This document shows positions 8,368-61,565 of a stretch of DNA of 64,000 nt, in pieces (positions within the stretch are counted from its first letter, which is position 1; each line of letters starts with the position of its first letter). Where the stretch lies: the NCBI GenBank assembly GCA_021734995.1, contig JAIPHX010000002.1, forward strand, positions 80,189 to 144,188. The letters run 5' to 3'. Position numbers and translations under genes: made by a program. The DNA is from Minisyncoccota bacterium. GTDB taxonomy: Bacteria; Patescibacteriota; Minisyncoccia; Phycocordibacterales; UBA9973. The notes beneath the pieces were generated by a model. It had not been told where the DNA came from and searched no databases. It saw nothing but the letters and a program-made list of their open reading frames with translations.

Positions 8368-10296
8368 TTATTGTATCACCCTATCTCCTGTAGGGGGGAA
8401 AGAAGGATCATTGGATAATCTAGTATTTAAAGAAGACTTATTGATCCTTACTCCTACATTAGCAAAATCATCCTGTCCCGTAAAGATGGTATCATTTATC
8501 AATGTTGGTGGTGTCCCAAGCTGGGAAAGTGATGGTAAAAGTTCTATCTGAAAACTAACCTCCCTACTTGAGCCCGTCACGCCAATTCCGCGCATCAATG
8601 TTCCAATATTCCAAACTATTTCTTTAGTAGAAGGATTGTAACTCAAGTCTTCAGATGGTGGAGAAACTGGGCCTACAAAGCTAGCCCAAGGAGGAAGTGA
8701 TGTTTTTACTTGAGCTCGTGAGATATTGTTGGCAGTATTGGATAGAGACCACACCACAGTATATGTAGTCTTTTGTTCTACTCTTGGTGGAATAGGACCA
8801 GAATTTTTAAATGCTCCAGAATAATATAATATTTTTGATACAAATCCTGCTTCGGTTATAATACGAATATTTTTTGATTCAGAGTTTTTTAGTTCATTTA
8901 TAGCATAACCATCAGAAGCTTGCCTACCTGCAATAGATACTTCTATGTTTATAGATGGATCAGACAATATACCATTTGTTCCACCAAGCAATGCTAATGG
9001 AGAAAGAGAGAAGCTAACATATCCAGATTTTCCAGGAGGTATGTCAGCAAACTCTTTTAGAGAATTTTTATCCCATACAATAGTATCTTGGGCAGAATTA
9101 TAAAAACCATCTTTCACTTCAATTTTTGATTCGTCTAAAGCATTTCCAGAAAGCTTGGCTCTTATCTGCATATCTGAAATTTTTGTATCCATATTGTTTA
9201 CCCATTTTATTTCTCCTTGTAATTTTGACTTAGTATCTACCGCATATTCATTCTGATAAACACCATTTATAAAAAGATTGGCTGCGATGAACGGCTTTTT
9301 AACAAACACTGTATGGCTTAGGGAATTAAAGACAGTGCCTATCTCAGTCTTGTCTACTAGATTTTCAGAACCACTCCAAACTTTAAAGTTCTTTTCTTCC
9401 CCATCATAAACATCCACCATCTTACCAGTCAAAGTGATTTCTTTTTCTCCTCCTGGAGGTAAATCTCCTAAATTCCAAATATTATTACCAATCACAGGAG
9501 AGGGTCTTGCTGATTGGAATTGAAAACCTACAGGATAGTCTATTTTTATAATCATTCTCTGCACAGATCTTGTCGCATTAAGTTGTGCTTTTATTCTCAA
9601 GGAAATATCTTGATTTGGACTAATCTCCTTTGGTCCTTCTACTAAAATATTTACTGGAGTAGAGCTAATAGACACTTCATATGGTTTTTCTTTTACAAAG
9701 ATAGCATTAGAACCTGCTACTCTATATTCAAGTAAAAATTTAATAGGTTTAATACTTCCCTGTTCTCCAAAAAGCACTACTTTTATATTCTCATTTTTTA
9801 CTCCACCAGAAGGAATACTTCCTAAAGAAACACGCAATTTTTCTGTATCTTTATTAAGGTCAGAAGAAGCACTTCTTGGATATTCCACAAGCAAATCAGC
9901 CAACTCTAGAGCAGAGGTGTTGCGATTGATAATTTCTATTTGAAGAGGCAATTCCTCCCCTCCTCCTGTGAAAGCATTACCCAGCACGGATATTTCAATA
10001 TTTTCATTTGAAATAGTATTTCCTTTTCCAACAAAGTTATAAAAGGCAAAAACAGAAGCAAGTACAAAAAATATTATTGAAAATATAAAGAATTTTTTAA
10101 AGATTGAAGTTTGCATAAATATTTTTTCTGGCAAAAGAAATTTTTTATCTTCTTTATCCCAAGTATCCGAAACTTTATGCTCCAAACTATCATGATGAAA
10201 TTTCATATCACTACGAATTTTCATTTCATAATTTTTACTGTAAAGTTTGGTTTTTAAATCTTCAAGTCTGTTCAGTTTTTCTGAGTCTCGCGCCAT
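8368..10296 (-). CDS. Hypothetical membrane-anchored protein with large extracytoplasmic domain
   Basis: 642 aa; ~65-aa cytoplasmic N-terminus, single TM (FFIFSIIFFVLASVFAFY), Ser/Asn-rich beta-like remainder; 4 nt upstream of glyQS. Confidence 0.55.
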   Translation of the reverse strand: MARDSEKLNRLEDLKTKLYSKNYEMKIRSDMKFHHDSLEHKVSDTWDKEDKKFLLPEKIFMQTSIFKKFFIFSIIFFVLASVFAFYNFVGKGNTISNENIEISVLGNAFTGGGEELPLQIEIINRNTSALELADLLVEYPRSASSDLNKDTEKLRVSLGSIPSGGVKNENIKVVLFGEQGSIKPIKFLLEYRVAGSNAIFVKEKPYEVSISSTPVNILVEGPKEISPNQDISLRIKAQLNATRSVQRMIIKIDYPVGFQFQSARPSPVIGNNIWNLGDLPPGGEKEITLTGKMVDVYDGEEKNFKVWSGSENLVDKTEIGTVFNSLSHTVFVKKPFIAANLFINGVYQNEYAVDTKSKLQGEIKWVNNMDTKISDMQIRAKLSGNALDESKIEVKDGFYNSAQDTIVWDKNSLKEFADIPPGKSGYVSFSLSPLALLGGTNGILSDPSINIEVSIAGRQASDGYAINELKNSESKNIRIITEAGFVSKILYYSGAFKNSGPIPPRVEQKTTYTVVWSLSNTANNISRAQVKTSLPPWASFVGPVSPPSEDLSYNPSTKEIVWNIGTLMRGIGVTGSSREVSFQIELLPSLSQLGTPPTLINDTIFTGQDDFANVGVRINKSSLNTRLSNDPSFPPTGDRVIQ

Positions 10297-10326: not shown

Positions 10327-10908
10327 TCAAAGATGTGTTTCCTTTAGAGCTTTGTTGATAGTGGCCAATATTTTTGCTCGGCTAGTCGCAAGTTCAAAAA
10401 CAAATTCTGATTGTATTGGTGATTTTATTAGTTTATCATATTCTGGATCACCCCCAATATAGCCCAAATTACCTAAAATCTTCAAAACAATCATTGTTTC
10501 TATATCTCTAATCATCTTTATATCTAGATTCCTCTCTAGAACCAAAAAACCATTTATTAAATCCTCAAACAGGGTTTCATTGGTCTCTTCTCCAGAAAGC
10601 AGTCTTTTCAAGAGACTGGCTACTCTGACAAAAATAGAGAGAGCACTTTTATTGTTTTTTAAATCATCTAAAATATTTGTTTTTGAAGCACTTGTAATAC
10701 GCCAAAAATCTTTTCCTCTCACTAAATCTACTTTTATATAAGAAAAATCTTGTAAAACAAAGCGTAATTTTGAAGAAAGTTTTCGCACCCCTTGAGCAGA
10801 AGCATAGATCATTCCTAGATCCTTTGTAAATAAAACATAATACTTCCCTGTCTCACCAATATTTCGGCTATCTAGTATTAGAGCTTCAGTATGATGTATA
10901 TGATGCAT
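10327..10908 (-). CDS. recO: DNA repair protein RecO (short form)
   Basis: EALILDSRNIGETGKYYVLFTKDLGMIYASAQGVRK.SSK matches the RecO N-terminal OB-fold consensus; no C4 zinc finger. Confidence 0.7.
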   Translation of the reverse strand: MHHIHHTEALILDSRNIGETGKYYVLFTKDLGMIYASAQGVRKLSSKLRFVLQDFSYIKVDLVRGKDFWRITSASKTNILDDLKNNKSALSIFVRVASLLKRLLSGEETNETLFEDLINGFLVLERNLDIKMIRDIETMIVLKILGNLGYIGGDPEYDKLIKSPIQSEFVFELATSRAKILATINKALKETHL

Positions 10909-10915
10909 CTAAAAA

Positions 10916-11560
10916 TTATATCACAAACTCTTTCAGCTCTTCCAGCACAGGAAGTATACTTTGGTCATTTATATCATTTGGTTTTATTTTAGAATTTTTA
11001 AAAACAATTTCTTCTATTTTTTTTCCACAAGATACTAGCTTCTGTCTTTCTTCTTGCTCTGGGTGCTGGTATCTTTTATTTGCCTCATCCATTCTTTCTT
11101 CGTAACTCAATACTCCATAAGGGCCTACTCGCAGATCAGAGTACACTAGTATTTGTATCGGCAAAGATCCACTTTCTAGATTTCTACATAGCGAAGAAAA
11201 TTCTAAAACATCAATAAAATCAATTACTTTTTTAGAAACTTCCATCTCCTCGGCAATCTTTTTATTGGCTTCGTGGTCATTTTCTCCATATTTTTGAACA
11301 AATTGCTGTTGAACATCTCGCCAAAAATCTATCCCTTCTGGATCATAAAATTCTTTTGGGAACACTGAAAAATCTGCTTTTACAATGTTTCCAAAGTCAT
11401 GTAGCAATAAAGATTTTACTATATTATCTTCATCCTCTTTTGAAAGAGGGTCTATTAAATTGGCACAAATAATCTTTGCCACAGAAGCTACCCTCAACAT
11501 ATGTAGCTCTAGATTTGGCATTATCTTGTATTTTTTATATAGGTCGGAGATTCTAGACAT
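10916..11560 (-). CDS. HD domain phosphohydrolase
   Basis: H..RVA..A motif followed by LLLHDFGN (HD motif). Confidence 0.7.
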   Translation of the reverse strand: MSRISDLYKKYKIMPNLELHMLRVASVAKIICANLIDPLSKEDEDNIVKSLLLHDFGNIVKADFSVFPKEFYDPEGIDFWRDVQQQFVQKYGENDHEANKKIAEEMEVSKKVIDFIDVLEFSSLCRNLESGSLPIQILVYSDLRVGPYGVLSYEERMDEANKRYQHPEQEERQKLVSCGKKIEEIVFKNSKIKPNDINDQSILPVLEELKEFVI

Positions 11561-11574: not shown

Positions 11575-12477
11575 TTATTTATTAAATTTATTCAAAAAAT
11601 CTTCTCTAGTAATATATCCATAAGAGGAATGGATTTGAAACTTTCCCGTTTCAATTAATTTACGAGCTTCATTTTCTCTAAAGTTGCCATTTTTATCGGT
11701 AAACTGTCCCCAAACATCATCTGAGTCAGAAGAACTTTTCTCTTTAAAAATCTTAAAACCAAGATTGCGACACAAAGGAGTAGACAAAAGCCAAGAACAA
11801 CCAATGATATATTTTATATTTTTATAATCTTTTTCTTTTTGAATCATTTTTGCTATATCTTGGAAAGCTTTATCAATACTAGCGAAAGGATTTTCATTTC
11901 TAAATGGATTTTTCCAAAAAGCTTCAAAATGGATAGAAATTCCTTCATCACCATCTTTTATATCCAAACCAGAGCCCTCAAAAAAAGACTGCAATTTTTT
12001 TTCTTTTACTGCATTTACAATTCCAAAACCTCTCATTTCTTTACCTTCTTCTACTATGCTTTGTGGAAGGTGTCTAAAGAATAAGTTACCTCTACCACTA
12101 TTGTATTTTCCAGCTTTTTTTCTTTCCTCTGTATAAAAATTATACAACTCCTCTTTCCAAGAGTTTGGGTTTTGGGCATATAAATCATTTATTTTATTAA
12201 TAGCAATAGATCTAAAGTCTTTTTCTTGGGCTAATTTATAAGATTCTCTCCCTTGATTGAATTCAATCATAGATCTACAACGAGATAAATCGTTTACAAT
12301 ATAAGTATTTTTTGCAAAAAGCTCACCAATAGATATTTCTTTTAGAGGCATTTCTCTTTTTATTAAAGAATCCACATAATCTATTTGCAGTTTTAACACA
12401 TTTTCCAATAAAATATTTTCTTTGTCGCCAACCAATTTTTTTTCAGCAAAAAAACCAAAATGATCTAAGGGGCTCAT
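11575..12477 (-). CDS. Hypothetical protein
   Basis: 300 aa, long intact ORF tightly packed between ileS and the HD gene; no domain recognised. Confidence 0.5.
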   Translation of the reverse strand: MSPLDHFGFFAEKKLVGDKENILLENVLKLQIDYVDSLIKREMPLKEISIGELFAKNTYIVNDLSRCRSMIEFNQGRESYKLAQEKDFRSIAINKINDLYAQNPNSWKEELYNFYTEERKKAGKYNSGRGNLFFRHLPQSIVEEGKEMRGFGIVNAVKEKKLQSFFEGSGLDIKDGDEGISIHFEAFWKNPFRNENPFASIDKAFQDIAKMIQKEKDYKNIKYIIGCSWLLSTPLCRNLGFKIFKEKSSSDSDDVWGQFTDKNGNFRENEARKLIETGKFQIHSSYGYITREDFLNKFNK

Positions 12478-12484: not shown

Positions 12485-15400
12485 CTAAATTTTATTTATT
12501 TCTATTTTAAAGACCATTTCTCCTACAGATATTTGTTCTCCATTATTTTCTGCAAAAGATAATTCTTTTGCTCCTGCTGTCTTTTGTAAATCTTCTTGAA
12601 ATAACTTTATAAGCTCCATTCCTTGAGGATCTGTCTGGACCTTTATAGCCACAACATCACTCGGCACAAGATTTATTTTCTTTCGAAGATCCTGTACTGC
12701 TCTCAAAAACTCTCTATAGTCTCCTTCTTTTTTTAACTCACTGGTAATTTTAGTATCCAAAAAGAAAGACTCTGTTTGATTTAAATCCACTAAAATATCT
12801 TTTATATTTAATTCATCTTTTATTAATTCATTGTATTCTTCAGAAAGAGTATAATTTTTCAACACAATCTTACTCAAAGGCTGACGCACTTTTATCCCTG
12901 CCTTTTGTCTTGCCTCAAAACCAAGAGAGACAGTATCGCGGACGGTATCCATATTGGCCAATACCTTTTCTCTTTCTTTCCCTACTCCAAAAAAATTAAA
13001 GAATCGTGTCATCCACTCTCCATCAACTCTTGGCCATTCAGTCAAATGAATACTTTCTGGTTCATTTTCATTTTTTAGAGAAAGCCATATTGACTCAGCA
13101 GAAAATGGAGCAAACGGAGCCAATATCTTTGCAAAATTTTTCAAAACAAAATACAAAGTTTGTTTTGCTTCCAACTCTCCATCTTTAATACGTTCTCTAG
13201 AGCGACGCAAATACCAAGTAGATAATTCATCTACAAAATTTTCAAAGGGTTTGATAGCTTTATTCATATCATATTCTTCCATCCCGCTTGTCACTTCTTT
13301 TATACATTTTCTCAATCGTTCTACAATCCAAATATCTAAAACATTTTTAGAATCTCCACACAAAGCTTCTCCATTTAAATCTGCAAAGGTTTTTTCTAAA
13401 TCCCTATCACGGTACAACTCATAAAAAGCTAAAACATTAAAAAGTCTCCCCACAATCTTGCTAGATATATCTTGCACTGCTTTTTCAGAAAAATCAGCAT
13501 CTTCTCCTTTCATTAAAGGACCAGCCAAAAGATACATACGCAATGCGTCTACCCCATATCTATCAAACAAAATCCAAGGATCTTCAAAATTACCTTTAGA
13601 TTTAGACATTTTTTGTCCATCTTCTGCTCTTACTGTCCCTGTTGTCACAACATATTTAAATGGTGCATGATCAAATAAAATAGAAGATACTACGTGAGTA
13701 TAATAAAACCAAGTACGGGTCTGAGCGATGTATTCAGCCACAAAACCTGCCGGAAAATTATTTTTCTTCCAATCTTTATTGGAAAATGGAAAATGATCTT
13801 GAGCAAAAGGCATAGAGCTGGATTCAAACCAGCAATCAATCACCTCTGTGATCCTTTGCATTTCCGCTCCACAGTCACATATAAGAGTAATATTATCTAT
13901 ATATGGTCTATGCAAATCCAACTCTCGAGCTTTATTGTGTGGCAGTGGAACAAAATCAAGCGCTCGTATTTCTGCATTATTAAAATAATCAAAACTTTCA
14001 GATTGCATATTGAACTTTTCTTGTTCAAAACCACCTGCAATCATATACATTGCTTGGACAGTATCTCCATGAGAAACAAATACAATATTTTCATTTTTGT
14101 ATTTGTCTTCAAAGTCATATAGAAAATCCCCCACCCTTTCAAAAAGTTCTTTTTGAGATTCTCCTCCCTCTGGATCTGCCAAAAATCTATCTTTTTGATC
14201 TTTGAAAAACTGATGATAATACTCAATGGATTTTCCTTCAAAAATACCCATATCAATCTCTCTGAGTCTTGGTTCAAAAATAATATTTTCTTTTTTAAAT
14301 CCAATAGTATCAGCTAAAATCTCTGCTGTCTCTCTAGCCCTTGGTAAATCAGAAGATACAATCATTGTAATCTTTTTGTCTTTCAAAATCGGGGCAGAAT
14401 TTTTAACTTGCTCTTTCCCTTTTTCCGTAAGAAAATTTTTAAAATGTGGGTCAGAATCAACATAAAACTTTTGATTACTATCTGCCTGCCCATGACGCAT
14501 TACAAAATATTTATTACCAGACTTTTTCCCTTTCTTTTTTAAATCTTCTAAAGAAGAGACGAAGTGTTGTTTTTCACATTTGGTGCATTTCCATACTGGT
14601 AGTGGAGAAGCAAAATATCTATTGCGGGAAATGTTCCAATCGGGAGCATTGTCTACAATATTTTTAAATCTTCCATCTTTTAAATGAGCTGGAACCCAAG
14701 ACATGTATTTTGCGTTTTTAATAATACTGTCTTTTGTTTTATTGATATTGATAAACCAAGAAGGGAGAGCGTAGTAAATAATAGGAGTATCGCAACGCAT
14801 ACAGTGAGGATAAGAGTGATTTATCTTTTCTTTGGCAAAAAGCTTGTTGTTGTGAGCTAGATATTTAACAATCTCAACATCTGTCACTTGGTGACCGTCT
14901 TTTTCTACAGCTTTTGGCTTTACAAACATCCCTGCAAAATCCAAAACTTCTTTTTTAAATTTACCAGTCTCATCTACATGCAAAATCCATGGTATTTTAT
15001 TTGCTCTAGCCAAATCCATATCTTCTTCTCCAAAAGCTGGAGCTTGGTGAGCAATGGCTGTTCCTTTGTCAGTAGTCACAAAATCAGCATGCCAAATCTG
15101 CCAAATATTTGGTTCATTTTTCATAGATTCTTCGTAATATGAAAACACAGGAGTATATTTTTTACCAATCAAATCAGCTCCTTTCAGCTCTCCTAGCTTT
15201 TCGTATTTGTTTTGTTCATTTTTAGAATTATTTTCAGTATTACTTGCAGAAGCATTGGATTGTAGTATTTTTTCAAAATATTCTTTTGAAACTATATACA
15301 CATCCTCTTCCCCGTTTTTACGGAACTTTATATAATCAAAATCTTTATTTACCACGATAGCAGTATTGCCTGGAAGGGTCCAAGGAGTAGTTGTCCATAC

Positions 15401-16087
15401 TATAAGGTATGTATTTTTTTCTTCCTTAAGGGCAAATTTTGCATAGACAGAAATATCAGCTATGTCTTTATAACTATTGTCCATCGCAATCTCAGAGTTG
15501 GCAATCGGGGTCTCACATCTAGCACAATACGCCAATACTCTTGTTCCTTCATAAATCAAATCTTTTTTATTCATTTCAGACAAAGCCCACCAGACAGATT
15601 CCATAAAAGAATTGTCCATAGTCTTGTATCCTCCATCAAAGTCTACCCACCTACCAATACGTTCTACTGATTTTTTCCATTCAGAAGCATAAGTAAGTAC
15701 TTTACTTTTTGCATACTCTGTAAATTTATCTATCCCAAGCTTCTCTATCTCTTGATGCCCTGCAATACCTAGATCCTTTTCAACAATATTTTCTATAGGC
15801 AAACCATGACAATCCCATCCCCATTTTCTAGGAACATAATATCCTTGCATGGTCTTGTATCTACCAATGGTATCCTTAACTGTACTACCCAAAATATGAC
15901 CATAATGCATAAGCCCTGTAGCAAAAGGAGGACCATCATAAAATACATAATGTCCTTTTGGAGACTCTTTTTTTAGACTTTTTTCAAAAGTATTATTTTC
16001 ACGCCAAAACTCTAAGATCTTTTCTTCTCTTTCCGCATTTTCAGATTTTATATTTTCCTTTTGAACTTCTTTGTTTTCTTCTGTCAT
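12485..16087 (-). CDS. ileS: Isoleucyl-tRNA synthetase with embedded histidine-phosphatase-like insertion
   Basis: 1200 aa; HYGH (HIGH), WGWDCHGLP, editing-domain TTTPWTLPGN, HSYPHCMRCDTP, KMSKSKGN; extra ~220 aa between PLPVWKCTKCEKQ and LHRPYIDN. Confidence 0.95.
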   Translation of the reverse strand: MTEENKEVQKENIKSENAEREEKILEFWRENNTFEKSLKKESPKGHYVFYDGPPFATGLMHYGHILGSTVKDTIGRYKTMQGYYVPRKWGWDCHGLPIENIVEKDLGIAGHQEIEKLGIDKFTEYAKSKVLTYASEWKKSVERIGRWVDFDGGYKTMDNSFMESVWWALSEMNKKDLIYEGTRVLAYCARCETPIANSEIAMDNSYKDIADISVYAKFALKEEKNTYLIVWTTTPWTLPGNTAIVVNKDFDYIKFRKNGEEDVYIVSKEYFEKILQSNASASNTENNSKNEQNKYEKLGELKGADLIGKKYTPVFSYYEESMKNEPNIWQIWHADFVTTDKGTAIAHQAPAFGEEDMDLARANKIPWILHVDETGKFKKEVLDFAGMFVKPKAVEKDGHQVTDVEIVKYLAHNNKLFAKEKINHSYPHCMRCDTPIIYYALPSWFININKTKDSIIKNAKYMSWVPAHLKDGRFKNIVDNAPDWNISRNRYFASPLPVWKCTKCEKQHFVSSLEDLKKKGKKSGNKYFVMRHGQADSNQKFYVDSDPHFKNFLTEKGKEQVKNSAPILKDKKITMIVSSDLPRARETAEILADTIGFKKENIIFEPRLREIDMGIFEGKSIEYYHQFFKDQKDRFLADPEGGESQKELFERVGDFLYDFEDKYKNENIVFVSHGDTVQAMYMIAGGFEQEKFNMQSESFDYFNNAEIRALDFVPLPHNKARELDLHRPYIDNITLICDCGAEMQRITEVIDCWFESSSMPFAQDHFPFSNKDWKKNNFPAGFVAEYIAQTRTWFYYTHVVSSILFDHAPFKYVVTTGTVRAEDGQKMSKSKGNFEDPWILFDRYGVDALRMYLLAGPLMKGEDADFSEKAVQDISSKIVGRLFNVLAFYELYRDRDLEKTFADLNGEALCGDSKNVLDIWIVERLRKCIKEVTSGMEEYDMNKAIKPFENFVDELSTWYLRRSRERIKDGELEAKQTLYFVLKNFAKILAPFAPFSAESIWLSLKNENEPESIHLTEWPRVDGEWMTRFFNFFGVGKEREKVLANMDTVRDTVSLGFEARQKAGIKVRQPLSKIVLKNYTLSEEYNELIKDELNIKDILVDLNQTESFFLDTKITSELKKEGDYREFLRAVQDLRKKINLVPSDVVAIKVQTDPQGMELIKLFQEDLQKTAGAKELSFAENNGEQISVGEMVFKIEINKI
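13922..14587 (-). other. In-frame domain insertion within ileS: histidine phosphatase (PGAM/His_Phos_1-like) module
   Basis: aa ~501-722 of IleRS: YFVMRHGQADSN (RHG catalytic motif) ... VFVSHGDTVQAM (second His motif), flanked on both sides by canonical IleRS sequence. Confidence 0.6.
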
Positions 16088-16117: not shown

Positions 16118-17839
16118 TTACATCTTTTCAGGGGCTTCTACACCGAGCAAATACAATCCTTTCTGCATTACAAGAGTAAAAGCTTTGACTAAATTTACTC
16201 TATATTCCGAAGTTCCTTCTTCTGTGTCTATTATTTTATTTTCAGAATAATAAACATTAAAAGCTCGTGCTACTTCAATCAAATAGCTAGCAATATGATT
16301 TGGAGCAAGCTCTTCTGCGCTTCTCTCTACCACTTCCCCAAATCTATACAAGATTCTCTCAAGTGTAGAAATTTCATTTGATAAATTCCCTTGAATCAAC
16401 TCTCCATTTACTTTACGCAACAAAGATGACGCTCTTGCAAAAGAATATTGTAAATATGGTCCAGAATCTCCATCAAAAGAAATAGATTTATCAAAATCAA
16501 AAATGATATCTCCGTTTAAAGATTGTTTTAAGACAGAATATTTTAGAGCAGATACACTTACTACAGAAGCAATCTTGTCTTTCTCTTCTTGAGACATCTC
16601 TTTGTCTTTCAAAATATCCATTATGGCGGAAAAAGAATCTTGCATTAAAGATTCCCCTGTAATCACATTTCCTTTCCTAGAAGACATTTTACCACTTGCG
16701 AGTCGCATCATTCCGTGTGTAACATGCTTCATTCTAGAAGCCCAATCAGGATACATTTGCTCTATTGCCTTTTCTACTACTTTCATATAGTCTGCTTGCT
16801 CTATCGCAGTAATAACAATGGAAAGATCTGGATTTTCTTTTTCAAACTTAGTAGTAGTCAGAGCAATTTCCTTGGTCTCATAAGTCGGCAAAAGAGCTTT
16901 GGTAATAAAGACTCTAGTGTGTAATTTTGAATCATATTTTTCAGCTTTAAAAACAATAGCTCCTTCAGATTCTTCAAAAACCTTCCCTATATTTTCACGG
17001 ACAATTTTTTCTCCTTTTGGAGCCATTTCACTTTCAAAAAAATAATAATCAAACTTAGTCCCAAGCTTTTTGTATATCTCTTCAAAAGCTTCCAAGGTGA
17101 CTTCTCTCCCCCAATCATAAATATTATTTATCTTTTCATCACTTCTCTCATAAACTTTTTTATTGATTACATCAATTTCTTTTTTAATATTTTCATCAGT
17201 GTCATATAGGTTGGAAGCATAAGAGTAACATTCACCGATGTGCTGAGCTTGTGAAGATACTGGAAGACTTTTGTCTGGCTCTCCTTTATCAAAAATTCCA
17301 TAAATAGCTTTAGCCACATGAAGTCCTACATCCCCTTGATAATTTGCTCGAATCATATTTGCTCCAGAATATTCTATAACGCGAGACAATGACTCTCCTA
17401 TAGTGTTACTCATCAAGTGTCCAACATGAAAAGGTTTAAAAGGATTTGGCTGGGTGTATTCAATCATTACTTTCTTCCCAGCAAAAAGATCATTCTTGCC
17501 GAAGTCTTTTTCTTCTAAAATATCTTGAATACTTTTATGAAAAAAATCAGGAGAAAGATAAAAATTTATAAAGCCTGCTCCTGCTGTTTTTACATCCAAA
17601 AATATTTTTTGAGTATGTTCGTTTTCTTTTATTTTTTCCTTTAAAACTTCTACTATGCTTAGAGCAAAATCTTTTGGATTTTTTTGCAAACTTTTAGCAA
17701 ACACCATAGCTACATTGGAAGAATAGTCTCCATTTGTGTGGTCTTCTGGATGTTCTATATTAAAAGAAACCTCTTCATTTACTCCCAAATCTCTAAGGGT
17801 GCTTTTAATCAAATCTTCTATTGCTCTTTTTATATTCAT
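16118..17839 (-). CDS. argS: Arginyl-tRNA synthetase
   Basis: PNPFKPFHVGHLMSNTIG (HIGH region), GKMSSRKGN (KMSK-like), ArgRS N-terminal add-1 domain, DALR-type C-terminus. Confidence 0.95.
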   Translation of the reverse strand: MNIKRAIEDLIKSTLRDLGVNEEVSFNIEHPEDHTNGDYSSNVAMVFAKSLQKNPKDFALSIVEVLKEKIKENEHTQKIFLDVKTAGAGFINFYLSPDFFHKSIQDILEEKDFGKNDLFAGKKVMIEYTQPNPFKPFHVGHLMSNTIGESLSRVIEYSGANMIRANYQGDVGLHVAKAIYGIFDKGEPDKSLPVSSQAQHIGECYSYASNLYDTDENIKKEIDVINKKVYERSDEKINNIYDWGREVTLEAFEEIYKKLGTKFDYYFFESEMAPKGEKIVRENIGKVFEESEGAIVFKAEKYDSKLHTRVFITKALLPTYETKEIALTTTKFEKENPDLSIVITAIEQADYMKVVEKAIEQMYPDWASRMKHVTHGMMRLASGKMSSRKGNVITGESLMQDSFSAIMDILKDKEMSQEEKDKIASVVSVSALKYSVLKQSLNGDIIFDFDKSISFDGDSGPYLQYSFARASSLLRKVNGELIQGNLSNEISTLERILYRFGEVVERSAEELAPNHIASYLIEVARAFNVYYSENKIIDTEEGTSEYRVNLVKAFTLVMQKGLYLLGVEAPEKM

Positions 17840-19191: not shown

Positions 19192-19797
19192 ATGAAGAAA
19201 AAGAAAGATACTCTGCCAAAACATATCTGGGATATTTTTTATAGATTTAAAAAAATGAAGAAAGGTGAGCTGGTTAAGAACCCAACAAAAAAGTTGCTAA
19301 CAAATCTTGTGGTTTCAGAACAAATTTGGGGCTTAAAATTCAATAAAATATATTTTACCAATAAATCTTTAAAACATTTATCAGAAAAGAAAGATTTGGG
19401 AGAAAAATTATTAAAAAACATTCACATCATCTTTAAATCTCCACATGAGACAAGAGAAGCAAAGAATATAGATAGGTTTTTTCTTATCGGAGACATAAGG
19501 GTCTCTTCAAAAAAAGTTCAGACAGTTGTCACTTTAGAAAAGTCTAAAAACGAAAGTGGCATAATAATTACAATATTCCCTACAAACAAAAAATACCTTG
19601 AGAAATTTGAGTTGGTTTGGAGGACGGCAAAGCTCACTTCTAAAAAAGAAATGTCAGTCCCTCCATACGCATATCAACAAAATGTTGACGCTGGCGGTCG
19701 AACCGATGAATTTTCCGCTCATAAACCAACTCAAAGCTCTCAAAGTACTAAATCCAGTATATCAAAACCAAAACAAAAAGGTCAAGCAACTCTTTAG
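19192..19797 (+). CDS. Hypothetical protein, paralog A of duplicated family
   Basis: 201 aa; shares MKKKKDxLPKHIWDxFYRFKKMKKGEL, IFPTNKKYLEKFEL.WRT and QSSQSTKSSISK.KQKGQ with paralog B. Confidence 0.6.
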   Translation: MKKKKDTLPKHIWDIFYRFKKMKKGELVKNPTKKLLTNLVVSEQIWGLKFNKIYFTNKSLKHLSEKKDLGEKLLKNIHIIFKSPHETREAKNIDRFFLIGDIRVSSKKVQTVVTLEKSKNESGIIITIFPTNKKYLEKFELVWRTAKLTSKKEMSVPPYAYQQNVDAGGRTDEFSAHKPTQSSQSTKSSISKPKQKGQATL

Positions 19798-19909: not shown

Positions 19910-20494
19910 ATGAAGAAAAAGAAAGATGCTCTGCCAAAACATATCTGGGATGTTTTTTATAGATTTAAAAAAATGAAGAAAGGTGAATTGATTGAAAATG
20001 GCTCCAAAAAAATAGGGACTAAAATTTACATTTATAGACATATCAAAAATACCATGTCTACCCCAAAAAAAGTATATTTTTCTCATTTAACAATAAAACA
20101 TATGGCAGAAAAAAATATATTAGGTGAAAAATTATTAAAAATAACTCCAAAGATTTTATTAAAACCAGATGAAATTAGACATGGGATCAAAAAAGATAGA
20201 CTAATTTTTATCAAAAACACAAAGACGACTTCTCACGCAAAAAATACAGCAGTGGTCATTGAATCCAAAACAAAAAATACCTGTATTGTTGTCACAATAT
20301 TCCCCACAAACAAAAAATACCTTGAGAAATTTGAGTTACTGTGGAGGACGCCGGCACCAAATGGTGTTCCCTCCATGCGGCAACACTTCAAAGAAGTGGC
20401 TCGCGGCAAGCGATTTCCCGCTCATACAGCAACTCAAAGCTCTCAAAGTACTAAATCCAGTATATCAAAATTAAAACAAAAAGGTCAAGAATAG
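19910..20494 (+). CDS. Hypothetical protein, paralog B of duplicated family
   Basis: 194 aa; see paralog A. Confidence 0.6.
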   Translation: MKKKKDALPKHIWDVFYRFKKMKKGELIENGSKKIGTKIYIYRHIKNTMSTPKKVYFSHLTIKHMAEKNILGEKLLKITPKILLKPDEIRHGIKKDRLIFIKNTKTTSHAKNTAVVIESKTKNTCIVVTIFPTNKKYLEKFELLWRTPAPNGVPSMRQHFKEVARGKRFPAHTATQSSQSTKSSISKLKQKGQE

Positions 20495-29721: not shown

Positions 29722-32700
29722 TTATTGTTCTTTGTATGTTGGCTTTTTTGCTGTTCCTCCATCTTCAGTAACATTAAGGGTGACACTTTTTGGAGCAAAC
29801 CGAGTTCCTTCTCCAGTACAATACAAAGTGTATACATGTTGACCTTCTGTCTGAAATGGACCAACAAGGGAACTCCCCTCTGTTGCTCCCTTTGTATCAA
29901 AACCATCTCCATTACACTCTATAGCATTCATAGAAGACCAAGAAAGAGTAGAAGTGGCATCAAAAGCAATCCAAGAAGGACTCACAGAAAGACTGGAAGA
30001 ATATATAGTTTCTCCTTTTTTACAAATTTCTTCTTTGTCATCCCAATAAAGGTTACTTGCACAATCTGCTGAAGCATTACTTGTGTCTAACTCCACTCCA
30101 TTGTGATACAAGAAAAACCCATATGTTTCTTTTTTTACTGAATATTTTACCTTTGTACCAGAAGTATCTGTTGAGACTACAGTATTGCGAGGAGGATTCA
30201 CAGTAACAGCAGTATCCGCTTCTGCGGTTAGATTACCAGTAGACCAAGTCAAAGAAATATCACAACTTCCGCTGTTTTCTTGAATAATACAACCTGTCGC
30301 AGAAAGGTTCCCAAACGGCACTCCGGCTTCTCCAACATTTACGCTTACCCAAGCTCCACAGTTGTTGGTTTCATCTGATTCTGTGATTTCCCCATTATTA
30401 TCACTAGAAGATTTATCGGCACATACTCGGATCCAATAAGATCCATTATTGTCAAAAGTATGTTGTTTTGTAATACTTTGATTTGTTCCCGCAGAAAGAG
30501 ATGATATTTGAACAGAAGAAAGGTCTGTGATATTCCCTTCAGCATTATCTGGATTATGATCTGCTACTTGGAAAAAGTTTGGGAAAGCAGTAGAGATGTT
30601 TGCACTACCAATGTTTGAAATACTTCCAGAAAGATTGGCTACTTGTTCTGCAGAGAAATTTGTTGGCCCTGTATAGCTAGCAGTAAGGTCAGGAGAAGGG
30701 CCAACTTTTACAGAAATACTACCCCAACCAGAACAGTTGTTGTTTTCTAGAGATTCTGTTATTTTCCCATCATCACCACTATTTTTCTTGTCTACACAAG
30801 CTCGGAGCCAATATGTTCCCACAGCATTAAATGTATGACTTGTAGTCATTGTTTCAGAACTATTTACTCCTAAATTTTTAAAATCATAAGAAGTAAGATC
30901 TGTAATTGCAGCAGTTTCTCCTCCTCCTTGAGCATTCGCTACTTTAGCGAATGAATTATATGAACTATTCCCTTGTCCAGAAGGGGCACCTATTCCTTCT
31001 TCTCCACTAGGATCAGGATTTATGGCTGAAACTTGCATAAATCCATCAAAACCACCACCTGTAGCTTTTAATCCTTGGTTTGTAGCGACAGCTGTAAGAT
31101 TTAATGCTTGATTTACTGTAGCTTCTTTTGGAGAAACACTACTTATCACAAGATCAGGCATTGGATTATCTGCTAAAGCTATTGTAGTCCAAGCCCCACA
31201 GTTATTTCCTTCATCTACTTCAGTAATTGTCCCTGCACTATTTCTATTTTCTTTATCTACACAAAGACGCATCTTATATCCACCTTCAGAATATGCTCTT
31301 AAATCAACATTACTTAAATTAATTAACTTCTCCTCTCCTGCATTCAAAGCATTTACATCAAAACTTGGAAGATCAACCTCTATTAATGCATTTACTATTT
31401 GTGCTCCATGTTTAAAAGCTGAAAGGGGTAATTCTTGTAATTGCAAAAATGCCTTGAAAGATGCTCCTGTAGCTACTCCACCAATATTTTTTACACTTGT
31501 ATTTATTGATGCATTTGGTCCAATTTGAAAAGTCGTAGGGCTGATACCCCCAGGAATAAGATCAGGAAGGGACCCGATGACAATTTTAGAATATGGATGG
31601 CTACAGTTATTGTCTTCATCTGACTCCACTATGCGTCCTAGATCTAAAATATTTTGTTTATCAGTACAAACCCGCACCCAGTATGTACCGGATTGAGTAA
31701 AGGTATGGTTTACATCTACAGTCAAAGATCCCCCTGGTGCAAGTGGTGGCTTTGCCACTGCTGGTGTTGAGTATGGGAATTGAGAGCTTGTCTGCGCGTT
31801 TACCTTTTTTGTGTTTTTAGTTAACTTCGCTAAAATATTTTCTTTTACACCTCTCTGTTGGGTCAGCTCTGGATTTGAGCTTGGGTCTTGATCTGTTATT
31901 TGGAAAAAGGAATTAAAGCTAGCACCTGTGGTTTCTCCTCCAATGTTTTTAACAATAGCAGAAAATTTTACTGGTTTATTTATAGTAGAAGCTGTAGGGG
32001 TGAATGTTACAGGGTCTGGGCGAAGATCTGGGGGGATTTTAACATCAATAACCAAACTATTACTTAAAATATTATTATTATCTTGGTCTTTACCCTTAAT
32101 ATTAAAAGTGATTTTTCCTGATCTTGAGGATAAATTTTTAGTCAGAACAACACCATTAACAGGACCTGAAAAATCAGGAGTACTATACCCAGAATTAACA
32201 TTCATACTTGTTGGATTATAATTAAATATATTATGTTCTATATCAGAGACACCTAACTTTTCTAGATTAAAACTAAGTACTTCAGAATTTTGGTTCGAAA
32301 ATGTAATTTTCTTTTCACTACTTACTGGTGTATTAGAAACCCCTCCTGTCCCAGTATTAACATTACCACTCCAATTAATTTTTAAATAAGGAGAAGCGGG
32401 TGTTTCTAATACATGAATTTTTGCATATCCTACAGTTTTGTATTCAGGAAATTCAGATTCAACTCCTTGAACTCGCAAAGTATAATCCCCGGCAGTAGTT
32501 GTGGGCAGAGAAACAATATTTACTGCTGTTGTCCCTAAAGAAATATTAAATTTTTTGACGGTAGAAGGGTTTTTACCGCTTACCTCTATAGCATTAATAC
32601 AACCATTTTGTTGACAATCTCCTTGAAATAAGCTTACATAGTCTGAATATGTATTCACTTGATTTCCATTTTTCTTTACTAAATTAAACATAAAAGACTC

Positions 32701-33624
32701 TCCAATAGAGATTGTTTTTGGTTCTGGAGACAACACAATACATAGAGGACAATCCACTTTTATAGTTGCTGTCTTAGATAACCCATACGGAGAAGTAAAG
32801 GTAACAGAACGTTCATAAGGAAAAGTAGATACTTTTTGACTCAAAAGACTTTCTTTAATTTTCATACATTTAAGTGGTTCTTCTTGTGGATTATTATTAA
32901 AATAACAATTCACAAAAGGCAAATCAAAAATATCACCCAAGTTCTGACCAGTAACATTAGCAGTATGACTAATATTAGGACCTTCTTTTATTAAAAATTT
33001 TATTGTTTCACCTGGAGTTGTATTATAAAATGAAGGGGCTACCATTAACCCTGATGGGTGTGCGGTAACTGTTACAGGTAAGTCTATCTCTTTTTGACCC
33101 AACTTAATCTGATCCCCTCTCCAAGCACGTTTGTAAGCTTTTACTTTAAAGGTAAATGTTTCAACTTGAGTAACTGTGCTATTCATTTTTAGTGAAAAAC
33201 CTTCCACATTACCATTAAAGATGGTAATGTTACTTGGTTTATTTTCAGTAACTAAATTACCATTATTTAATACAAAAACAATATCACACCCTGTTATTAT
33301 TGTCCCATTATTATTTGTTACCCCGTAACCATATTTTTCGCAAGATACTGCAGTATTAGGAGGAGTACCAGTACATTCATCGTATCCAGATACATCACAA
33401 CCCACTGAGTCATTAAGAAAATTCGTTAATTCCGGCCCTGGATTTGGTGTTTGAATAAACAAATACTGTTCATAGGAAGAACCAGTTCCATATTGCATAT
33501 TTGCACTTCTTGGATAAATCCCGACACCACCATCACCACCACCCACTGCATAAACAGGGGTAAAAAAAGATAAGCTAAAAACAAAACAAAACACTAGAAA
33601 GATATATTTTATATATTTAGACAT
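29722..33624 (-). CDS. Giant secreted/cell-surface protein with four CARDB-like repeats
   Basis: 1300 aa; signal peptide/TM MSKYIKYIFLVFCFVFSLSFFTPVYA; four ~100-aa repeats starting PDL(I/R/V/T)..., each with N(I/Q)G and a terminal E(S/V)DE.NNC(G/S)W, i.e. the CARDB signature. Confidence 0.8.
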   Translation of the reverse strand: MSKYIKYIFLVFCFVFSLSFFTPVYAVGGGDGGVGIYPRSANMQYGTGSSYEQYLFIQTPNPGPELTNFLNDSVGCDVSGYDECTGTPPNTAVSCEKYGYGVTNNNGTIITGCDIVFVLNNGNLVTENKPSNITIFNGNVEGFSLKMNSTVTQVETFTFKVKAYKRAWRGDQIKLGQKEIDLPVTVTAHPSGLMVAPSFYNTTPGETIKFLIKEGPNISHTANVTGQNLGDIFDLPFVNCYFNNNPQEEPLKCMKIKESLLSQKVSTFPYERSVTFTSPYGLSKTATIKVDCPLCIVLSPEPKTISIGESFMFNLVKKNGNQVNTYSDYVSLFQGDCQQNGCINAIEVSGKNPSTVKKFNISLGTTAVNIVSLPTTTAGDYTLRVQGVESEFPEYKTVGYAKIHVLETPASPYLKINWSGNVNTGTGGVSNTPVSSEKKITFSNQNSEVLSFNLEKLGVSDIEHNIFNYNPTSMNVNSGYSTPDFSGPVNGVVLTKNLSSRSGKITFNIKGKDQDNNNILSNSLVIDVKIPPDLRPDPVTFTPTASTINKPVKFSAIVKNIGGETTGASFNSFFQITDQDPSSNPELTQQRGVKENILAKLTKNTKKVNAQTSSQFPYSTPAVAKPPLAPGGSLTVDVNHTFTQSGTYWVRVCTDKQNILDLGRIVESDEDNNCSHPYSKIVIGSLPDLIPGGISPTTFQIGPNASINTSVKNIGGVATGASFKAFLQLQELPLSAFKHGAQIVNALIEVDLPSFDVNALNAGEEKLINLSNVDLRAYSEGGYKMRLCVDKENRNSAGTITEVDEGNNCGAWTTIALADNPMPDLVISSVSPKEATVNQALNLTAVATNQGLKATGGGFDGFMQVSAINPDPSGEEGIGAPSGQGNSSYNSFAKVANAQGGGETAAITDLTSYDFKNLGVNSSETMTTSHTFNAVGTYWLRACVDKKNSGDDGKITESLENNNCSGWGSISVKVGPSPDLTASYTGPTNFSAEQVANLSGSISNIGSANISTAFPNFFQVADHNPDNAEGNITDLSSVQISSLSAGTNQSITKQHTFDNNGSYWIRVCADKSSSDNNGEITESDETNNCGAWVSVNVGEAGVPFGNLSATGCIIQENSGSCDISLTWSTGNLTAEADTAVTVNPPRNTVVSTDTSGTKVKYSVKKETYGFFLYHNGVELDTSNASADCASNLYWDDKEEICKKGETIYSSSLSVSPSWIAFDATSTLSWSSMNAIECNGDGFDTKGATEGSSLVGPFQTEGQHVYTLYCTGEGTRFAPKSVTLNVTEDGGTAKKPTYKEQ

Positions 33625-60220: not shown

Positions 60221-60227
60221 TTTTTTG

Positions 60228-60299
60228 TGCACCCGGAGGGAATCGAACCCCCACCAACAGTTCCGAAGACTGTTGTGATATCCATTTCACCACGGGTGC
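60228..60299 (-). tRNA. tRNA-Arg (anticodon TCG)
   Basis: Manual cloverleaf: acceptor GCACCCG/CGGGTGC, D-stem GTGA/TCAC, anticodon stem ACAGT/ACTGT with loop CTTCGGA, T-loop TTCGATT; 72 nt. Confidence 0.8.
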
Positions 60300-60646: not shown

Positions 60647-60717
60647 AGCGGTCATGGTTTAGTGGTAGAACACGTCCTTGCCAAGGATGAGACGGGAGTC
60701 CGATTCTCCCTGACCGC
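60647..60717 (+). tRNA. tRNA-Gly (anticodon GCC)
   Basis: Acceptor GCGGTCA/TGACCGC, anticodon stem CGTCC/GGATG with loop TTGCCAA, T-stem GGGAG/CTCCC; 71 nt. Confidence 0.85.
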
Positions 60718-60982
60718 ACAACTTAGTGTCTATTTAATTATTCTTTATATGTCCTTTATATCTATCTTTTAAAATAAAGATATACTGTGAATATGTGGAT
60801 AACTTTGTGGGTATTGTTTATAAAGGACATATTTAAACTGTCTAATAAAAGACCAAAAAACCAAATATATGCTTATAATATAAGGTTATCTTAATAAAAG
60901 ACACTAAAAAATAATAAAGTGTTTCACGTGATAGAAGTTTCATAAAGAACCATTATTTAAAATTTATATCTTGCTTATATAA

Positions 60983-61399: not shown

Positions 61400-61427
61400 T
61401 ATACTCAATTTGTTTTCAGTACATCTT

Positions 61428-61498: not shown

Positions 61499-61565
61499 CA
61501 ATAATAAAAAACCTTGTTTTAGAATATAAATTTGATATACTTACTTTCGTAAGAAAATAATAAAT

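Follow-up and report, generated by a model that had tools for sequence, protein, structure and literature searches.

A Histidine Phosphatase Domain Inserted into the Catalytic Region of Isoleucyl-tRNA Synthetase in Patescibacteria

INTRODUCTION

To our knowledge, aminoacyl-tRNA synthetases (aaRSs) are among the most conserved enzymes known, and bacterial aaRSs rarely carry extra catalytic domains. The extra aaRS domains that are understood, among them the editing domains CP1, INS, and YbaK, brought new quality-control chemistry to light. The 64,000-nucleotide stretch of Minisyncoccota DNA analyzed here (the window; contig JAIPHX010000002.1) encodes an isoleucyl-tRNA synthetase (IleRS) for which an in-frame histidine phosphatase insertion had been proposed from the sequence alone. 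This locus raises the question as to whether a phosphatase is indeed built into the catalytic region of an essential synthetase and, if so, what it might do there. GenBank names the protein (MCF7834004.1 and the identical MCF7862644.1) only a "class I tRNA ligase family protein", which exposes an annotation gap. In the literature accessible without subscription, we found no description of an IleRS or any other tRNA synthetase with a histidine phosphatase.

RESULTS AND DISCUSSION

Host Synthetase

The ileS gene is a single open reading frame of 1200 amino acids (12485–16087, minus strand, as for all features below), as the original prediction stated, and all IleRS and phosphatase motifs quoted there were found at verified coordinates. 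Notwithstanding the insert, the whole protein scores 803.3 bits with the ileS model TIGR00392 (equivalog cutoff: 621.4). The N-terminal part (residues 1–522, 14522–16087) comprises the first Rossmann half with the HYGH motif (residues 61–64, 15896–15907), the CP core, the CP1 editing domain with TTTPWTLPGN (residues 232–241, 15365–15394), CP2, and the first half of CP3 with its CxxC knuckle (C501/C504, 14576–14587), which PLPVW precedes (residues 495–499). The C-terminal part (residues 723–1200, 12488–13921) contains DLHRPYID (residues 724–731, 13895–13918), the second CP3 Cys pair (CDCG, 13868–13879), the second Rossmann half, the KMSKS motif (residues 826–830, 13598–13612), the anticodon-binding domain, and the type-2 C-terminal domain (DUF5915).

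Across 50 homologues, H64, K826, S828, and K829 are invariant or nearly so, and the editing-site residues T232–T234, H347, and D356 are invariant. The CP1 domain matches the structures 1wk8 and 1ue0 with E values of about 1e-19 to 1e-22. The best solved relatives of the IleRS body include Priestia megaterium IleRS2, which matches the whole body (8c8u, E = 4e-206 by sequence; 8c8v, TM 0.82 by fold), Thermus thermophilus IleRS (1ile, TM 0.91 by fold), and yeast IleRS. With type-2 IleRSs (the eukaryote-like, mupirocin-resistant type), the protein shares the HIGH-type motif, KMSKS, CP1 editing, and DUF5915. It is not a MupA/MupB resistance allele (665–707 bits; cutoff: 1900). Judged by its HYGH, KMSKS, and editing residues, the IleRS body is otherwise intact and predicted to charge tRNA-Ile. 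Since the signatures of both aminoacylation and editing are kept, the phosphatase would be an added catalytic center that replaces none.

Limits and Placement of the Insert

The original prediction assigned positions 13922–14587 to a block without counterpart in canonical IleRS. To set the limits, we used a hidden Markov model built from seven insert-less IleRSs. Residues 17–522 align with profile positions 4–477 and residues 723–1198 with positions 480–953. Hence, the true insert is residues 523–722 (200 amino acids, 13922–14521), consisting of a branch-1 histidine phosphatase domain with conserved linkers, where insert-less IleRSs have two profile positions. For this stretch the lack of a counterpart holds. 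Residues 501–522 (14522–14587, CTKC...KKKGKK) on the other hand are canonical IleRS CP3, including the CxxC zinc knuckle, and were wrongly counted in the block.

Alignment to 6ldk combined with published domain limits (PMC7191050) places the insert in CP3, with one Cys pair of this subdomain on either side. T. thermophilus IleRS likewise carries Cys pairs in CP3, but type-2 IleRSs and 1ile have about 2–7 residues where the window protein accommodates a full phosphatase of 200. The possibility that the block is a known IleRS-specific CP2 or CP3 insertion can thus be dismissed: the host loop, which is at the surface of the synthetase, belongs to the known variable CP3, and the insert lies within CP3 without being CP3 itself.

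Both junctions are conserved among 67 orthologues. The N-terminal junction KKSGNKY (residues 521–527, 14507–14527) is a basic linker into phosphatase strand 1 (conservation of K522: 0.91, S523: 0.91, G524: 0.85, N525: 1.00, K526: 0.93, and Y527: 0.97). The C-terminal junction FVPLPHN (residues 712–718, 13934–13954) is a near-invariant linker back into IleRS (F712: 0.99, P716: 0.96, H717: 0.97, and N718: 0.96). In a model of the full-length protein (pTM 0.84), the junction linkers have pLDDT values of 91–96 (N-terminal junction: 93–94; C-terminal junction: 91–94). Near-invariant linkers that are modeled with confidence are consistent with a fixed docking geometry.

The Phosphatase Domain

The Pfam family His_Phos_1 (PF00300) matches residues 528–693 (14009–14506) with E = 8.8e-34 and 117.3 bits (gathering threshold: 21.7), covers profile positions 2–167 of 194, and splits the tRNA-synt_1 match into two. 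Both hallmark motifs named in the original prediction are present. The first is RHG (residues 531–533, 14489–14497) with the predicted phospho-acceptor H532, and the second is SHGD (residues 672–675, 14063–14074) with the second catalytic histidine H673. Between them lie LPRARET (14327–14347) with the second phosphate-binding arginine R583, and GGES (14156–14167) with the predicted general acid/base E643. We compared 227 inserted copies of the domain with 116 copies encoded as standalone proteins (see below). The Arg and His of RHG and also R583 occur in 226 of the inserted and in all standalone copies, E643 in 226 and 115, and H673 in all 343. The complete pentad R531, H532, R583, E643, and H673 is intact in 339 of the 343. 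In the 67 full-length orthologues, these five residues and N538 are invariant and G533 is 99% conserved, at a mean identity over the domain of 0.41. T587 and E610 are also conserved, and the cap region (residues 611–642) is poorly conserved. Retention of catalytic residues while the rest diverged to about 41% identity is a pattern typical of selection for catalysis.

An AlphaFold2 (AF2) model of the insert (pLDDT 92.6, pTM 0.90) adopts the histidine phosphatase fold. The best Foldseek matches (probability 1.00, TM 0.7–0.77) are PspA (4ij5 and 4ij6), GpgP, PhoE, a riboflavin-pathway HFP, and CobC, with dPGM structures ranking below these phosphatases. The riboflavin-pathway HFP (9mmh) was considered as a functional lead and dropped, as it is a structural neighbor without a specific link. 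With PhoE, PspA, GpgP, and CobC (1h2e, 4ij5, 4pz9, and 6nru), all of the small-molecule phosphomonoesterase type, the insert has in common the fold, the size (about 190–200 amino acids), and the Arg-His...Arg...Glu...His constellation. Those enzymes are free-standing and lack the junction motifs KKSGNKY and FxPxPHN, whereas the insert is nested in another enzyme with these motifs conserved. None of the NCBIfam equivalog cutoffs for dPGM, CobC, PspA, or SixA is reached by the insert (CobC TIGR03162: 78.1 of 162.9 bits; PspA: 68.6 of 350; SixA: 32.9 of 74.5; dPGM_arch: 74.9 of 225; GpmB: 64.9 of 261; PRK01295: 32.8 of 316). Consequently, no specificity can be transferred from a known enzyme. The insert represents a complete histidine phosphatase of branch 1, akin to the phosphomonoesterases PhoE, PspA, and CobC, and is predicted to be active. 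The earlier description "PGAM-like" is therefore correct as to superfamily membership but not as to dPGM, whose cutoffs are all far above the scores of the insert.

Could the domain instead be a pseudo-enzyme, retained as a scaffold that replaces the CP3 zinc knuckle, binds tRNA, or mediates complex formation? The zinc ligands C501 and C504 are retained in just 58% of orthologues, so the insert might stabilize CP3 after zinc loss, and a few copies did lose a catalytic residue (E to Q in copy 1 of protein P0372, R to W in P0355). Against these exceptions stand the 339 intact pentads and the conservation of N538, T587, and E610 in a domain of about 41% overall identity, which make a purely structural role very improbable. 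We also considered charge as an indicator of nucleic acid binding and rejected it: the window insert has a pI of 5.3 and inserted domains are near neutral or acidic (median pI 6.2), while the basic standalone domains (median pI 9.3) are suggestive only.

Distribution and Authenticity

All 80 species-representative Patescibacteria loci returned by a query that crosses the junctions span all or nearly all of this query, and 66 of them encode an uninterrupted reading frame of 1150–1250 amino acids end to end at 41–61% identity. At 50% identity clustering, 197 representatives match with E ≤ 1e-30, and among the best 150 nearly all are single-stretch matches over all or most of the query. The architecture is thus common to some 150–197 clusters. 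The synthetase in fused matches is IleRS every time and no other aaRS. The nested architecture is genuine and lineage-wide in Paceibacteria (Patescibacteria/CPR), and profile matches, the predicted fold, and the comparison of relatives all bear out the proposed in-frame nesting of a histidine phosphatase in the catalytic region of an intact IleRS. None of the three refuting conditions set out with the original prediction applies: the His_Phos_1 match is significant, the predicted fold is that of a histidine phosphatase, and H532 and H673 are invariant in orthologues.

A chimeric assembly, or a mobile or intein-like insertion that is either in transit or removed by splicing, would have to account for the same uninterrupted frame in 66 independent assemblies. 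The composition of the insert is also like that of the host gene (GC 0.325 vs 0.341; GC3 0.21 vs 0.25). Two observations could nevertheless be cited for such an artifact or selfish element. The first is that the C-terminal linker ends in HN, which looks superficially like the end of an intein. We found no match to a HINT or endonuclease family in the window protein and no flanking DNA repeats at either insert junction. The residue after H717-N718 is K719 in the window and most commonly E among the 67 orthologues; a conserved Cys, Ser, or Thr nucleophile never occupies this column. Second, many database matches are short fragments. We considered whether these short proteins, many of them on long contigs, represent a naturally split IleRS. 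They end in frameshift tails or begin mid-domain, as expected of truncated or frameshifted fragments of the same architecture, and the 66 genome loci encode one full frame. Hence, the original view that a chimera is unlikely can be maintained, its suggestion of a domesticated selfish insertion finds no support, and the chance that the architecture is an artifact or a selfish element appears vanishingly small.

A Standalone Phosphatase Gene Adjacent to ileS

In related Patescibacteria, the phosphatase is encoded by a separate gene of about 195 codons that precedes an ileS without insert and usually follows directly on argS. In eight contexts sampled from family members with about 40–100% identity to the reference protein P0024, this gene was linked to ileS in every case, and in seven the distance to the start of ileS was between -4 and +11 bp. 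Linkage persists despite unrelated genes (Fic, AbiEii) inserted nearby. The more generic His_Phos relatives P0015, P0030, and P0045 are not linked to ileS. A pattern scan of metagenomes for P0024 relatives confirmed none of 600 pattern matches.

P0024 and its roughly 170 uncharacterized relatives are homologous to the window insert over the full length, including the strand past the Pfam core (33% identity), and share the catalytic pentad and the argS-ileS-recO neighborhood with the fused clade. They differ in being separate polypeptides without the FVPLPHN linker (P0024 ends before that motif), in carrying Q and D in place of N538 and E610, and in their basic character. In the window, argS lies directly upstream of ileS (16118–17839, assigned by Pfam) and recO, a synteny marker common to the standalone-phosphatase lineages, lies downstream (10327–10908). 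Among fused loci, ArgRS is encoded upstream of ileS in 39 of 68 and RecO downstream in 55 of 80. The standalone relatives usually have the phosphatase gene between argS and ileS, whereas the fused clade has the argS-ileS-recO synteny with no separate phosphatase gene at those loci. By Rosetta-stone logic, proteins whose genes stay tightly adjacent over the long term and also occur fused are predicted to interact physically or functionally. Judging from gene order and fusion, the phosphatase and IleRS appear to be long-standing partners.

Further Insertion Sites and GNAT Variants

In other lineages, phosphatase copies occupy two or three further IleRS loops. If the CP3 position is called site A, sites B and C each occur in two or three divergent proteins and site D in one protein only. 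Some copies reside in the anticodon-binding domain, far from the active site, and some IleRSs contain tandem copies (2–4; doubles and one four-copy protein). GNAT domains are a further addition in one lineage: the IleRS P0330 combines them with a site-A phosphatase, and P0115 is a standalone fusion of GNAT and His_Phos. Among bacterial IleRSs, the family NF040702 ("ileS_w_GNAT") offers a precedent for the accommodation of an additional enzymatic domain. The window protein falls outside this family (292 bits; cutoff: 1999) and has no GNAT Pfam match. P0330 is not a member either (241 bits).

In a neighbor-joining tree of phosphatase domains, the standalone family encoded next to ileS groups as a single clade among site-A inserts, and the deep branches are star-like. 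A tree of IleRS bodies stripped of inserts interleaves insert-less with fused lineages, and the former are not monophyletic (0 of 40 bootstraps). The two trees conflict, and these neighbor-joining trees are poorly resolved.

The scatter of insertion sites bears on the most serious alternative, namely that a housekeeping phosphomonoesterase (PspA-like, PhoE-like, or from a cofactor pathway) was absorbed repeatedly into ileS without any interplay with aminoacylation. By chance, an ancestor with a streamlined genome would have had the phosphatase gene in its argS-ileS operon, from where local rearrangement produced fusions that keep the phosphatase expressed together with an essential protein. 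Reduced genomes in which unusual fusions abound are a general feature of CPR bacteria. All of the closest structures belong to metabolic phosphatases that act on small molecules, the cap region varies, the domain is promiscuous in its fusions, as P0115 shows, and insertion sites as remote as the anticodon-binding domain make the geometry relative to the IleRS active site seem unimportant. A mere hitchhiker would hardly remain linked to ileS in eight of eight contexts down to about 40% identity, despite Fic and AbiEii insertions nearby, when the generic relatives P0015, P0030, and P0045 are not. Nor would one expect nested and tandem copies to be confined to IleRS and absent from ArgRS, whose gene is the usual other neighbor, and from every other aaRS, or the linkers to be near-invariant and confidently modeled. 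We therefore consider repeated absorption without functional interplay a possibility to be taken seriously, though a doubtful one.

Proposed Function

Adjacent-gene linkage, copies at further loops and in tandem, and the GNAT variants point to the phosphatase as a dedicated partner of IleRS. The explanation that we favor, and hold to be somewhat probable as a whole, is that the genuine nested phosphatase and its standalone relatives serve IleRS as a dedicated physical partner, enclosed in the synthetase in the one case and bound non-covalently in the other, and act on a phosphomonoester near the synthetase. Hydrolysis would proceed via a phospho-H532 intermediate, with E643 as acid/base and R531, R583, and H673 holding the phosphate. 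Nested and adjacent-gene forms may have interconverted through local rearrangement within the argS-ileS operon. The presence of copies at several loops suggests that precise placement near the catalytic center is not required, and this scatter is consistent with simple tethering or co-expression as well as with mechanistic coupling.

The substrate could be a small phosphomonoester that is processed on or close to the synthetase, for example a nucleotide-type product or ligand, or a phosphorylated tRNA end. Such a substrate is most likely because the fold neighbors are all small-molecule enzymes with a normal-sized cap; a phosphoprotein is less likely. Given the poor conservation of the cap region, the substrate pocket may differ across the family. 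AMP and PPi are made by all 20 aaRSs, and so generic product removal would leave it unexplained why the domain is confined to IleRS. The originally suggested hydrolysis of Ap4A or aminoacyl-adenylate does not fit the usual phosphomonoester chemistry of histidine phosphatases. On chemical grounds, a tRNA 3'-phosphate is a possible substrate. Another gene in the window specifies a CCA-adding enzyme with PolyA_pol and HD domains, and the HD domain of the E. coli CCA-adding enzyme can heal tRNA 3' ends, so that there would be less need for another tRNA-end phosphatase.

A more specific version holds that the domain is a third catalytic site working in cis on IleRS ligands. It might clear the CCA end of tRNA-Ile of a 2'- or 3'-terminal phosphate, or of a phosphate or pyrophosphate added by a toxin, and thereby enable charging. 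Alternatively, it might take the phosphate off an inhibitor that mimics the adenylate, or off IleRS that was inactivated by phosphorylation. We regard this version as rather unlikely. If true, it would mean that a substrate-repair or anti-toxin function is built into the synthetase, and the GNAT-bearing variants would extend this protective logic by a second arm based on acetylation.

Under the favored reading of a dedicated partner, the finding points to an unrecognized phosphate-removing step tied to isoleucine charging in Patescibacteria; at the least, it strikingly illustrates how domain nesting has recurred in the evolution of an essential enzyme. Three arrangements link the phosphatase to IleRS: nesting at the main site, nesting elsewhere or in tandem, and a tightly adjacent upstream gene. 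This link extends over a large radiation of bacteria that are ultra-small and for the most part uncultured. The existence of both fused and split versions provides a clean experimental handle. RNA-handling enzymes covalently joined to a phosphoesterase are also found in the E. coli CCA-adding enzyme Cca with its HD domain and in the mycobacterial bifunctional RNase H/CobC-like acid phosphatase (NF005567). The HD fold of Cca is unlike the histidine phosphatase fold of the insert, and any resemblance of the window protein to these fusions would be one of function only. The insert does match the phosphatase half of NF005567 (77 bits). Both Cca and NF005567 are end-to-end fusions, whereas in the window an aaRS encloses the phosphatase within its catalytic region.

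Host Protein and Insertion Site

The ileS gene (12485..16087, minus strand) is one uninterrupted ORF of 1200 residues. In the encoded isoleucyl-tRNA synthetase (IleRS) we could place every motif quoted in the original prediction: HYGH (residues 61–64), TTTPWTLPGN (232–241), PLPVW (495–499), CTKC (501–504), RHG (531–533), SHGD (672–675), DLHRPYID (724–731) and KMSKS (826–830). The Pfam family tRNA-synt_1 matches in two stretches (E = 1.3e-117) with His_Phos_1 between them, followed by Anticodon_1 and DUF5915, and the protein scores 803 bits against NCBIfam TIGR00392 (ileS, cut-off 621). Despite passing this cut-off, its GenBank entries (MCF7834004.1/MCF7862644.1, Candidatus Paceibacterota) carry only the PGAP name "class I tRNA ligase family protein", which omits the phosphatase domain. 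Judging from the names of matching proteins, this gap is probably common to the whole family.

By sequence and predicted structure, the IleRS body is assigned to type 2. The closest solved IleRS by sequence is the 1032-residue Priestia megaterium enzyme (8c8u, E = 4e-206), with eukaryotic cytoplasmic and T. thermophilus IleRS also among the best relatives; type-1 S. aureus IleRS is a far weaker match (6e-79). An AF2 model of the full-length protein (pLDDT 89.1, pTM 0.84) superimposes best on "P. megaterium isoleucyl-tRNA synthetase 2" (TM 0.82), yeast IleRS–tRNA and 1ile (TM 0.91). Since the IleRS signatures and the editing residues T232–T234, H347 and D356 are invariant among homologues, the phosphatase adds to the editing function without replacing it.

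The insertion was mapped with an HMM built from seven insert-less IleRS. Residues 17–522 correspond to HMM positions 4–477 and residues 723–1198 to positions 480–953, which leaves an insert of 200 residues (523–722, window 13922–14521) where insert-less enzymes have two. The block originally proposed (501–722) therefore contains a real insert and starts 22 residues too early: residues 501–522, with the CxxC knuckle, belong to the canonical IleRS sequence. Residues 19–519 align with residues 19–498 of C. albicans IleRS (6ldk), in which CP3 comprises residues 473–534 (PMC7191050). By this alignment the insert is nested inside CP3, between the Cys pairs CTKC (501–504, window 14576–14587) and CDC (737–739, window 13871–13879), and is not CP3 itself. 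CP3 is structurally variable, with a zinc motif present in the T. thermophilus enzyme (PMC7191050). C501 and C504 are retained in only 58% of insert-bearing orthologues and the downstream pair is missing from some matches (for example the protein P0003), so that a phosphatase-bearing CP3 can apparently do without zinc binding.

Across 67 full-length sequences the N-terminal junction KKSGNKY is conserved, as are F712, P716, H717 and N718 at the C-terminal junction (0.96–0.99), and both junctions are predicted at pLDDT 91–96 in the full-length model. These conserved and confidently modelled linkers point to a fixed docking geometry of the phosphatase on IleRS.

Phosphatase Domain

Apart from the small boundary correction, the original identification of a histidine phosphatase is correct. 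His_Phos_1 (PF00300) matches residues 528–693 with E = 8.8e-34 and 117 bits (cut-off 21.7), and a model of residues 510–726, based on an alignment of 38 sequences, adopts a histidine-phosphatase fold (pLDDT 92.6, pTM 0.90). Its closest solved neighbors are the phosphoserine phosphatase PspA (4ij5/4ij6, E = 4e-14, TM 0.73–0.77), mycobacterial GpgP, the Aquifex riboflavin-pathway HFP, PhoE and CobC. These nearest structures are small-molecule phosphomonoesterases, and true mutases rank lower. The domain stays far below all NCBIfam equivalog cut-offs: CobC (78 vs 163 bits), PspA (69 vs 350), dPGM_arch (75 vs 225), GpmB (65 vs 261) and SixA (33 vs 74.5). The label "PGAM-like" thus holds for fold and superfamily; as a mutase assignment it fails, with both dPGM_arch and GpmB missed by a wide margin.

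None of the 67 full-length sequences lacks the domain (gap fraction 0.006), and N525, R531, H532, N538, G557, S579, R583, T587, E610, E643 and H673 are invariant, including the RHG and SHG histidines of the original prediction. The insert shares a mean identity of only 41% with the window protein, compared to 57–63% for the catalytic halves. Despite this divergence, 339 of 343 domain copies, whether inserted at any site, in tandem or standalone, keep all five residues of the pentad R-H-R-E-H. This pattern points to selection on catalysis and makes a pseudo-enzyme without catalysis very improbable. We favor, with some reserve, a dedicated and catalytically active phosphomonoesterase partner of IleRS, with H532 as the proposed nucleophile.

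Its substrate would most probably be either a small phosphomonoester or a tRNA with a phosphorylated end. Hydrolysis of Ap4A or aminoacyl-adenylate, as suggested earlier, is at odds with the usual monoester chemistry of histidine phosphatases. Removal of a tRNA 3'-phosphate, also suggested earlier, is chemically feasible, but the window already encodes a CCA-adding enzyme (58715–60232, minus strand) that combines a PolyA_pol head with RNA-binding and HD phosphohydrolase domains, and in E. coli Cca the HD domain supplies such activities.

Distribution of the Fused Form

The junction-spanning peptide (residues 470–764) was scanned against one genome for each GTDB species and gave 436 confirmed stretches. 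Those inspected, the best 80, span the query completely or almost completely at 44–54% identity; they belong to Nomurabacteria, Paceibacterota, Campbellbacteria, Wolfebacteria, Zambryskiibacteria, Niyogibacteria and RAAC4_OD1_1. In 66 of these 80 loci a single ORF of 1150–1250 residues aligns end-to-end with the window protein (41–61% identity). Among 1.84 billion representatives of a 50% identity library, 197 proteins match with E ≤ 1e-30; of the top 150, almost every one aligns in a single stretch over the whole query or most of it, and many of these stretches lie in proteins of about 1150–1200 residues. The fused architecture is real and widespread. The GC content of the insert agrees with that of the host gene (0.325 vs 0.341), and a search of the window ileS for junction-flanking repeats found none. 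Recurrence of the full ORF, host-like composition and the absence of such repeats reduce an artefact or intein to a negligible probability; the insert is not a chimera, in line with the earlier judgment.

Standalone Phosphatase Gene

In related Patescibacteria the phosphatase also occurs as a separate gene. The standalone protein P0024 (197 residues) is encoded 11 bp upstream of a 956-residue insert-less IleRS, in which '…CKSCGADKCIGSVKELPKKLKDLHRPYID…' spans the uninterrupted insertion site; the flanking genes, ArgRS on the far side and RecO downstream, are those of the window. The P0024 family comprises at least 170 proteins. Seven further contexts were sampled (roughly 40–71% identity to P0024): five read argS–phosphatase–ileS, one has an AbiEii pair between argS and the phosphatase gene, which overlaps ileS by 4 bp, and one reads phosphatase–Fic–ileS–recO. 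Linkage to ileS is therefore found in all eight contexts, with a gap of −4 to +11 bp in seven. Less closely related generic His_Phos genes (P0015, P0030 and P0045) show no linkage to ileS. In the fused clade, 39 of 68 loci have the ArgRS gene upstream and 55 of 80 have the RecO gene downstream, and the neighborhood contains no separate phosphatase gene. Inserted and standalone domains differ at position 538 (N in 208/227 vs Q in 95/116), at position 610 (E in 214/227 vs D in 113/116) and in median pI (6.2 vs 9.3). The neighbor-joining trees have little resolution and conflict with one another; they neither polarise the change between adjacent and nested forms nor fix the number of events.

Toxin-type gene insertions leave the argS–phosphatase–ileS linkage unbroken: a Fic-domain gene, possibly encoding an AMPylase or kinase, lies between phosphatase and ileS in locus L091 (5307–6434), and in locus L094 (2123–2982) a DUF6922/AbiEii pair separates argS from the phosphatase gene. 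For one standalone family member (P0393, HPM39135.1, of the P0210 cluster) the GenBank label is "Candidatus Pacearchaeota archaeon". Because its 90%-identity cluster mate (in L094) lies among the bacterial genes SmpB, ArgRS and IleRS, the archaeal assignment probably reflects an error in binning or taxonomy.

Additional Insertion Sites

We mapped 241 phosphatase instances onto an insert-less IleRS profile. About 220, including that of the window, occupy site A (profile ~476–480), with tandem doubles in P0358, P0363 and P0386. Site B (~521–532) is used in P0351 and P0372, and site C (~658–670, at the start of the anticodon-binding domain) in P0351, P0361 and P0373. Site D (~405–415) is a single observation from P0289, a very divergent, truncated protein on short contigs (≤3.9 kb) whose arrangement of four copies is provisional. 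Second-site copies keep their catalytic residues (for example P0361, 'YFVRHGETAVN…ISGHAG'). Among 147 representatives, 139 carry one copy, seven carry two and one carries four.

That one host contains the phosphatase at site A and again at sites B and C argues for selection for tethering it to IleRS. In the main rival reading the enzyme is a housekeeping phosphatase hitch-hiking in the argS–ileS operon without mechanistic coupling. The scattered insertion sites and the variable cap region speak for this rival, but we consider it the less probable reading since the linkers are conserved and fusion is strictly limited to IleRS: among the fused matches no other host was found, neither ArgRS nor any other aminoacyl-tRNA synthetase. 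Long-conserved tight adjacency together with fusion is a classic mark of physically cooperating proteins. The partnership of IleRS and phosphatase is conserved in Patescibacteria in nested, multi-copy and split-gene forms, a richer picture than the single insertion described originally. Synthetases with an accessory catalytic domain are a known kind; the IleRS–phosphatase version is apparently undescribed, as no description was found in the literature searched, with most subscription journals outside its scope.

In one IleRS lineage GNAT domains accompany the phosphatase. P0330 (L093 5001–9686; a 13-member cluster on contigs up to 2.1 Mb) is a 1561-residue IleRS with a GNAT domain in the CP1 region (residues ~281–413), a site-A phosphatase (649–818) and then a second GNAT-like stretch; it falls outside NCBIfam NF040702 "ileS_w_GNAT" (241 bits vs 1999). 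P0115 is a free-standing GNAT+His_Phos fusion of 380 residues, so that both domain types may act together.

Other Genes in the Window

Two minus-strand genes separate ileS and recO, encoding a weak HD-domain protein (10916–11560) and a 300-residue protein with a marginal YkoP-like match (11575–12477). Relatives lie downstream of ileS in only 8/80 and 2/80 related loci, and by this comparison the genes are taken as lineage-specific operon additions. The GTG-start ORF of the CCA-adding enzyme overlaps the 3' end of tRNA-Arg(TCG) (60227–60299, minus strand) by a few bases, so that translation probably begins further downstream. Further tRNA genes (Gly-GCC, Pro-TGG, Gly-TCC) form a small cluster at 60648–61639. 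The 194-residue product of an ORF at 19910–20494 (plus strand) contains a PBECR2 domain (phage Barnase-EndoU-ColicinE5/D-RelE-like nuclease 2) and may be a toxin that targets RNA, and the neighboring 201-residue ORF (19192–19797) is without any family match. Two minus-strand genes encode putative surface proteins of 1300 residues with CARDB repeats (29722–33624) and of 642 residues with DUF11 (8368–10296), large proteins of a kind typical of CPR. In the standalone-phosphatase loci L082, L087 and L088, too, recO is followed by a DUF11/CLIPPER-like gene.
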